This document shows positions 60,756-61,484 of a DNA stretch of 64,000 bases, piece by piece. Made by a program: the position numbers and the translations under genes. The notes below the pieces were generated by a model, which worked only from the letters and a program-made list of their open reading frames with translations, was not told the origin of the DNA and ran no database searches. Position 1 is the first letter of the stretch. Every line of letters starts with the position of its first letter. Source of the DNA: an uncultured Gemmatimonadales bacterium (GTDB lineage: Bacteria; Gemmatimonadota; Gemmatimonadetes; Longimicrobiales; RSA9); contig CAWCRS010000007.1 in the NCBI GenBank assembly GCA_963798085.1, positions 1,376,001 through 1,440,000 of the forward strand, in the 5' to 3' direction.

Positions 60756-61484
60756 ATGGAACCCCTCACCGAACTGGAGCGCAAGGTTCTCGATTTCATG
60801 ATCGAGTACCTGCGCCGCAACACCTATCAGCCGTCGGTCCGCGAGATCTGCGCGGCGCTGGGCATACGCAGCACCCGCAAGGCCTCGGAGCTGCTGCAGT
60901 CATTGGAGGCAAAACAATGGATCGAGCGCACACCCTCGCGCTCGCGCGGCGTGCGCGTGCTCGGTCTGGTGCCTGACGAAGGTGCCGCACCGCCCGGCGA
61001 CGCCTGCCCCGAATACCGTGATGCCGAACCCGGTGATGCACACTGGATGCAATGCGCACTCGAGCATGCGCGCGCCGCGGCCGCGGTTCAGGAAGTGCCC
61101 GTGGGTGCTGTGCTCGTGCACGACGGGCGCATCATTGCTGACAGCCACAACCTGACTCGCACCATGACCGATCCCACGGCGCACGCGGAACTGGTGACGA
61201 TCCGCCGTGCCGCCATGCTCGACGGTCACGTCCGGCTGCTGGATGCCACGCTCTACGTCACGCTCGAGCCCTGCGCCATGTGCGCCGGTGCGATCGTGCT
61301 CGCGAAGGTCGGCCGCCTCGTCTACGGCGCCGCCGACCCCAAGACCGGCATGTGCGGCTCCCTCGCCTGCATCGTGCAGGACCGCCGCCTCAACCACCGC
61401 GTCCGCCTCACCCGCGGCGTCCTCGCCCAGGAGACCGGTGAAGTATTGCGGCAGTTCTTCCGCGAGCGACGCGGTCCGGATTGA
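60756..61484 (+). CDS. tadA: LexA-type DNA-binding domain fused to tRNA adenosine(34) deaminase
   Basis: aa 1-70 are a LexA winged helix (LTELERKVLDF, PSVREIC, IERTPSRSRGVR). aa 94-242 are TadA (EVPVGA, PTAHAE, TLEPCAMC, LNH). Confidence 0.85.
   Translation: MEPLTELERKVLDFMIEYLRRNTYQPSVREICAALGIRSTRKASELLQSLEAKQWIERTPSRSRGVRVLGLVPDEGAAPPGDACPEYRDAEPGDAHWMQCALEHARAAAAVQEVPVGAVLVHDGRIIADSHNLTRTMTDPTAHAELVTIRRAAMLDGHVRLLDATLYVTLEPCAMCAGAIVLAKVGRLVYGAADPKTGMCGSLACIVQDRRLNHRVRLTRGVLAQETGEVLRQFFRERRGPD

Follow-up and report, generated by a model that had tools for sequence, protein, structure and literature searches.

A LexA2-derived winged helix joined to a predicted housekeeping TadA deaminase in Longimicrobiales

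We analysed a stretch of 64,000 nucleotides from an uncultured Gemmatimonadales bacterium (assembly GCA_963798085.1, genome G000 below), referred to here as the window. Close to its end, one open reading frame joins a LexA-type winged helix (HTH) to a complete TadA deaminase. The gene and its neighbours lie on the same strand, as follows.

59032..60483, + strand: gltX-type tRNA synthetase gene, the conserved upstream neighbour (named from motifs; synteny).
60513..60542, + strand: sigma-70-type promoter TTGACG-N18-TAGCAT (1 found, 0.2 expected).
60552..60624, + strand: tRNA-Gln(CTG), between promoter and fusion.
60756..61484, + strand: lexA2(HTH)-tadA fusion ORF P0001, 242 aa, open throughout, with profile matches.
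60756..60965, + strand: LexA2-derived winged-helix domain, aa 1-70 (gap-free alignment to E. coli LexA 1-69; AlphaFold2 pLDDT 82-95).
60966..61004, + strand: disordered linker holding the fusion joint, aa 71-83, at the place of the deleted pseudo-S24 domain of LexA2 (pLDDT, comparison with split loci, variable in alignment A1).
61005..61031, + strand: native N-terminal extension of TadA, aa 84-92 (similar to how unfused TadAs of the family begin).
61032..61472, + strand: TadA catalytic domain, aa 93-239 (NF008113 match; alignment to solved TadAs).
61886..62443, + strand: pyrR-like gene (named from sequence), next downstream of the fusion at most fused loci.

The first-pass annotation had described a single 242-aa frame uniting a LexA winged helix with a TadA that carries HAE at aa 143-145 and PCAMC at aa 172-176, and profile and motif searches confirmed this. 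Pfam LexA_DNA_bind (PF01726) matched aa 1-65 with 59.4 bits (cut-off 23.7), and the TadA equivalog NF008113 matched aa 93-239 with 174.4 bits (cut-off 150). The lexA profile TIGR00498 covered aa 1-70 only, and its 59 bits fell below the cut-off of 110.95. As the annotation had also stated, the features of a cleavable LexA were missing: the Pfam scan gave no Peptidase_S24 match, and the Ala-Gly site and Ser-Lys dyad of LexA SOS repressors were absent from the protein. The fusion protein belongs to the TadA family and not to the LexA SOS repressors. Its AlphaFold2 model (mean pLDDT 88.3, pTM 0.65) consisted of two folded domains with aa 76-80 disordered between them (pLDDT <50), and its best fold matches were TadA structures. 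The proposed linker of about 23 aa does exist, but part of it is TadA's own N-terminus, as the TadAs of unfused relatives start with, for example, VKCEFGPARAGDALWM; from this comparison, the true joint lies in about aa 71-83.

In the deaminase half, the HAE/PCxxC zinc and catalytic motif aligned to the solved enzymes 1Z3A and 2B3J. The catalytic and tRNA-contact residues of the domain (H143, E145, C173 and C176; N132, D194, N213, H214, F234, F235, R238 and R239) were, together with L170, invariant in 29/29 fusions and in 44/44 unfused TadAs of family f1. D194 aligned with the Asp of the E. coli TadA 'GARD' motif, which we take to be D108, in line with the earlier assignment. Some basic residues were gained in the fused enzymes, such as R217 (26/29 fusions vs 8/44 split loci). 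A homodimer model scored 0.81 (best control 0.00), with an interface lying wholly within TadA; the mark was reached by 20/30 solved homodimers and 1/23 single chains, and the runs shared at least 53% of contacts with pLDDT of at least 80. This pass is probably due to likeness to solved TadA dimers, and it makes the suggested role of TadA as a dimeriser structurally plausible.

The fusion was the only TadA above cut-off in G000, a genome 90% complete, and in 4/4 other fused genomes tested. The same genome encodes a tRNA-Arg(ACG) with a UACG loop, no tRNA-Arg isoacceptor with GCG or TCG was found in its 90% complete assembly, and CGC was the commonest Arg codon (64,339/116,052 in a crude ORF set). 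We predict that the fusion is the cell's housekeeping tRNA-Arg(ACG) A34 deaminase. The only tRNA-Arg(ACG) gene found lies in a 22-tRNA array (C5:189593-193300), as do the sole copies found of tRNA-Phe, tRNA-Trp, tRNA-Asp and tRNA-Tyr. TadA also occurs behind other N-terminal domains: nine non-LexA fusions were seen among 24 other long TadA matches scanned, with NUDIX (3), DUF2087 (2), DUF559 (2), shikimate kinase (1) and O6-methylguanine methyltransferase (Ogt; 1) as partners (P0125, P0137, P0140, P0151, P0166, P0169, P0178, P0185 and P0229).

Sequence comparisons across assemblies show that the LexA-HTH-TadA fusion is genuine and old. Among the best 120 matches listed, 31 other clusters had both domains, namely 30 compact fusions at 51-69% identity (one N-terminally partial) and P0029. 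Within the family, 5/73 genomes carried the fusion (G000, G029, G053, G010 and the unpublished G054), and a search of 301 genomes of the order gave no full-length match beyond these five. A junction pattern search in metagenomes returned 26 matches, of which 8 were fusion loci and 18 unrelated. The whole profile was matched by 1 of the best 150 hits among 1.84 billion representatives, a TadA-only pattern search of genome contigs showed no fusion among the 80 loci listed, and the ESM Atlas gave deaminase matches at 0.80 only. Three public DNA runs had no read cover at the junction and are neutral either way. The unpublished G054 (locus L009) enters the analysis as one family fusion of five, in a single dN/dS pair, and as one of 11 fused loci tallied for Shine-Dalgarno (SD) site, promoter and operator; our conclusions stand without it. 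NCBI and JGI annotate the named relatives as plain TadA, and in the literature covered, which included few subscription journals, we found no description of a LexA-HTH-TadA fusion or of lexA2. A longer protein, P0029 (394 aa, f2-like, one contig), reads through from a whole LexA-like protein (LexA2) into TadA; its middle looks frameshifted, which may reflect a sequence error.

Two caveats had been raised against the fusion, and neither held. The letters at 60969-76 were read as a possible GTG/TGA overlap of two genes merged by an indel. They are as stated, with GTG at 60969 in frame (V72) and TGA at 60974-76 in another frame, but an assembly indel is ruled out by the 30 independent compact fusions, the three other published family genomes plus G054, and the eight metagenome loci. 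There was good reason to raise it, as two other genes of this assembly do carry indel-type breaks. The start of pyrB (window 62441-62570) contains two compensating frame shifts and fhs (formate-tetrahydrofolate ligase, window 54865-56580) one frame break, all typical of long-read indel errors; both genes are named from sequence. A recent deletion within the SOS lexA was the other possibility, and a search for a second full-length lexA had been proposed. G000 has an intact SOS lexA (lexA1) at C7:1102246-1102854, with Ala-Gly, Ser and Lys, and a full LexA HTH gene was found in G000 and in the four other fused genomes checked, which rules this origin out.

By sequence, the fusion HTH derives from a second LexA paralogue, lexA2, and not from the SOS repressor: it shares about 33% identity with the genome's own LexA HTH and 60-70% with LexA2. 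Across Longimicrobiales, lexA2 is the gene immediately before tadA, the full order being gltX - promoter - (tRNA-Gln) - lexA2 - tadA. The pair was adjacent in 40/45 unfused f1 loci (3 without lexA2, 2 too short), 10/10 f2 loci, 2/2 f6 loci and 10/12 loci of f3, the family to which Longimicrobium belongs; of the other two f3 loci, one was too short and one had no lexA2. The cleavage triad of LexA2 was kept in 10/10 f3 proteins but in 0/40 from f1 and 0/10 from f2; the Ala-Gly site was likewise present in 0/40 f1 proteins, and a degenerate S24 domain still scored in 7/7 LexA2 scanned. In the LexA2 loci L013-L037, L040, L144-L184 and L225-L226 the HTH is near-invariant, on a protein that looks cleavable in f3 and like a pseudo-protease in f1 and f2. 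Because f1 LexA2 had already lost the cleavage triad, the comparison shows the fusion to be an in-frame deletion of an inactive LexA2 C-terminal domain. In other loci lexA2 was lost outright (2 f1 g12 loci and 14/14 unfused f7 loci), and gltX abuts tadA in all 14 of the latter.

On the TadA tree (32 rows) the core fusions formed a single group with SH-aLRT 92; the joined tree (31 rows) also united them, at SH-aLRT 93, and nested them among split f1 genera. One fusion, P0048, sits in G555, a genome of family f7 in another order, and is the sole full-length match among 30 f7 genomes; there its reading frame overlaps the stop of gltX, and neither promoter nor tRNA separates the two. The TadA of P0108 grouped with an f7 TadA at 98/89, and P0022 fell outside the core fusion group on a reduced TadA-only tree. 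Taxonomy suggests a second fusion origin in f7 without establishing it, since a single fusion clade was compatible with the AU tests (p 0.458 and p 0.519).

We then compared the pace and pattern of change in the two halves. Purifying selection acts on the fused HTH, as close pairs show: L010/L121 differed by 9 synonymous and 0 non-synonymous changes, and omega was 0.17 for L011/L120, 0.23 for L121/L142 and 0.05 for L009 (the unpublished G054)/L122. Between distant fused lineages omega reached 0.5-0.9, values at which dS was saturated. The HTH:TadA tree-length ratio was 1.66 in fusions vs 0.68 in split f1 loci, so that the fused HTH evolved ~2.4 times faster relative to TadA, and the pairwise ratio was 1.66 vs 0.58 in unfused loci. 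No stop or frameshift interrupted the HTH in the 8 metagenome and 5 f1 genome fusion loci, which come from searches that favour intact copies.

E8, P26, R29, E30, S39, K53, R58, R62 and R64 were invariant in 28 fused HTHs, and R41 and R67 were each kept in 27/28. T42, S44, E45 and Q48, fixed in 38-39/40 split f1 proteins, drifted in the fusions even within sub-lineages (position 42, S11/K10/T4/R3; position 44, S19; position 45, E10/H5/D5; position 48, mixed). We take positions 39, 41, 44, 45 and 64 to have DNA-contact roles, with 41-45 presumably reading bases and R64 presumably entering the minor groove. R9, R20 and K38 were not kept in fused HTHs, and the window's own copy has the changes G32C and G54Q; the DNA-binding RKG motif includes K53-G54 (PMC8607333). 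Retention was 7/10 for basic and 6/16 for polar positions, a descriptive and non-significant difference among related sequences. This pattern suggests that the fused HTH has kept its basic residues and that its recognition helix is relaxed. The fused sequences share kinship, and each residue shift, like the SD loss described below, may be a single event.

Upstream of the gene, the position of the promoter pattern was conserved in 9/11 fused and 37/40 split f1 loci. No terminator-like site was found in 60400-62000, and tRNA-Gln and the fusion are probably cotranscribed from this promoter. Several GC-rich inverted repeats lie between the tRNA-Gln and the fusion start (window 60630-60735), none of which scores as an intrinsic terminator. 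At two metagenome loci (L124:2344-2417 and L134:1256-1329) the tRNA-Gln upstream of the fusion has the anticodon CCG, not CTG, and ARAGORN calls it tRNA-Arg; this is a tRNA with a Gln body that reads CGG, or else a copy in decay.

Anti-SD pairing of -7 kcal/mol or stronger was present in 1/11 fused vs 35/40 split loci, with a modest control in the lexA1 SD of four fused genomes (-5.9 to -7.2). A separate internal start for TadA was considered and dropped, none being conserved in the 11 fused loci. Overexpression of TadA leads to more mRNA editing (PMC5630033), and loss of lexA2's strong SD in the fusions would fit selection on TadA dose. Searches for an operator were negative in the regions covered. 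The best shared dyad occurred in 4/11 promoters upstream of the fusion and in 7/40 upstream of split lexA2, the LexA1 box was found in 0/71 orthologous upstream regions, and the idea of a GAACA-NN-TGTTC operator was dropped. The candidate site proposed earlier, TTTCGAAA at 60744-51, is present, but in only 1/71 orthologous upstream regions.

Nothing in the sequences speaks for DNA editing by the fusion. The observed/expected ratios of five fused genomes lay in the range of nine unfused genomes, both for TA (0.36-0.46 vs 0.365-0.605) and for TACG (0.87-1.05 vs 0.81-1.01); with samples of 17-60 kb (40 random 20-kb pieces for G000), only a strong genome-wide effect is detectable. A mutator footprint was rejected: TA was lower at fusion loci (0.36 vs 0.43), and the difference was gone on neutral regions. 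Adenine base editors presumably owe their activity on DNA to substitutions at L84, A106 and D108 of E. coli TadA. The corresponding positions in the fusions (L170, 29/29; A192, 26/29 with Thr in 3; D194, 29/29) had no DNA-enabling substitutions, and A192 was Ala or Thr in fused and split groups alike. The framing of the locus as a natural base editor is not sustained by the invariant RNA-type residues or by the undepleted TA and TACG, nor by the joining of TadA to unrelated domains in other lineages.

The fusion was next set against known proteins. It shares with bacterial TadA (E. coli 1Z3A, S. aureus 2B3J; NF008113) the equivalog score, Zn ligands, catalytic Glu, D108-equivalent and dimer interface, with about 48% identity and an rmsd of 2.1 A to 2B3J, and differs in the 70-aa LexA-type winged helix added at the N-terminus; no solved chain with both domains was among the sequence or fold matches shown. 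With LexA (TIGR00498; E. coli 3JSO) it shares a winged helix collinear with residues 1-69, including S39, K53, S63 and R64. It differs from the repressor in its descent from lexA2 and its relaxed recognition helix, and no autoregulatory operator was found at its promoter (neither a LexA1 box nor another shared dyad). A C-terminal S24 domain, an Ala-Gly site and a Ser-Lys dyad, the hallmarks of SOS repressors (PMC8565304), are all absent. Engineered counterparts exist in the LEVI and LexRO chimeras, likewise a LexA DNA-binding domain on a foreign dimeriser (PMC9614035), and in adenine base editors such as TadA-8e, which join TadA to a nucleic-acid-binding module. In contrast to these, the fusion is natural, its TadA is wild-type and of the RNA kind, and it has neither an R-loop module nor evolved DNA-editing changes. 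ADAR1 with its Z-alpha domain and ADAT3 with its N-domain are adenosine deaminases with an accessory nucleic-acid-binding domain, an analogy of unrelated origin; Pfam gave no match of fusion aa 1-92 to either domain.

Our preferred explanation, held tentatively and at a little short of an even chance, is that the fusion works as a normal deaminase of tRNA-Arg A34 and, as a dimer, brings along two nucleic-acid-binding domains of weak specificity. In the ancestor of one f1 clade (Longimicrobiales), as the comparison shows, an in-frame deletion of lexA2's inactive C-terminal domain joined the winged helix to tadA. The TadA dimer, as modelled, would then present two winged helices on flexible linkers, which may grip nucleic acid via the conserved basic residues, LexA2's strict operator reading being largely lost. 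The HTH would act as a weakly specific tether to nucleoid DNA and/or RNA, localising or concentrating TadA, and not as a precise repressor. Initiation may have been lowered towards a TadA-like level through the observed loss of lexA2's strong SD. The HTH could instead be a passenger, a remnant of lexA2 decay kept for its start codon and folded so that the essential TadA stays stable. The domain is dispensable for TadA function in relatives, because lexA2 was lost outright in f1 g12 and f7 loci, and TadA's tolerance of unrelated N-terminal fusions (9/24), the raised HTH rate after fusion and the G555 gene overlapping the gltX stop point the same way. Against this, Arg/Lys at 29, 41, 53, 58, 62, 64 and 67, which we expect to be exposed, are near-invariant in 28 proteins whose alignment has a mean column identity of 55%, and the reading frame of the HTH is intact in all 13 loci inspected, albeit from searches that favour such copies. 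We consider this account unlikely.

A bifunctional protein, in which TadA replaces the C-terminal domain of LexA2 as dimeriser and yields a non-inducible, sequence-specific repressor that is also a tRNA editor, with a recognition helix diverged between lineages towards new operators, is somewhat unlikely, though the likeliest of the rivals. F1 LexA2 was already non-cleavable, so its C-terminal domain was probably for dimerisation only; the model places the dimer in TadA, and the fused HTHs retain S39, T40, R41 and R64. On its own, the DNA-binding domain of LexA is a monomer, and it represses again once joined to a foreign dimeriser (PMC9614035); DNA binding also tolerates a long linker (PMC8607333). 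Yet positions 42, 44, 45 and 48 vary even within sub-lineages, no shared dyad was found upstream, the proposed site occurs in 1/71 upstream regions and the SD is weak. The specific-repressor reading is further weakened because the HTH comes from an adjacent non-cleavable LexA paralogue and its recognition helix is relaxed. Very unlikely, in our judgement, is a targeted editor in which the HTH would hold TadA at selected promoters or genes, there to edit nascent mRNA or deaminate ssDNA, the DNA version being extremely unlikely by our own estimate. The architecture itself and the basic residues gained in TadA (R217) would suit it, as would mRNA editing by bacterial TadA at UACG (PMC5630033). However, the substrate pocket shows no departure from wild type, nor do L170 and D194, the TA and TACG ratios of our small samples lie in the unfused range, and no operator was found. 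The LexA HTH, moreover, binds double-stranded DNA and gives no single-stranded bubble. Quite unlikely, too, is a natural DNA-anchored RNA editor, which would hold two winged helices on chromosomal sites, might both repress and deaminate UACG in nascent tRNA or mRNA, and might have arisen on two occasions, in f1 and in f7, from one and the same pair of genes.

The locus is a natural, selectively kept join between the DNA-binding domain of a transcription factor and an essential RNA-editing enzyme; it is no evidence for a natural DNA base editor. The steps of its origin are visible in living relatives, from cleavable through non-cleavable LexA2 to TadA fusion or full loss. It makes testable whether an enzyme dimer can take over repressor dimerisation and whether tethering alters bacterial A-to-I editing, and it brings to light a LexA paralogue that has gone unstudied, along with a candidate SOS box for part of the Gemmatimonadota.

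This candidate box, the direct repeat TTCGG-N6-TTCGG, was recognised by sequence alone, and no report of it was found in the literature covered, which included few subscription journals. Two copies were present at 11/11 canonical lexA promoters examined (f1, f7). The places recorded are C7:1102903 (lexA1), C3:530957 and C7:1888025 in G000, and L185, L188-L192 and L233-L237. One copy lies upstream of recA (L185), and in G000 a single copy is also found upstream of a gyrA-like and of a dnaE2-like gene, both named from sequence.
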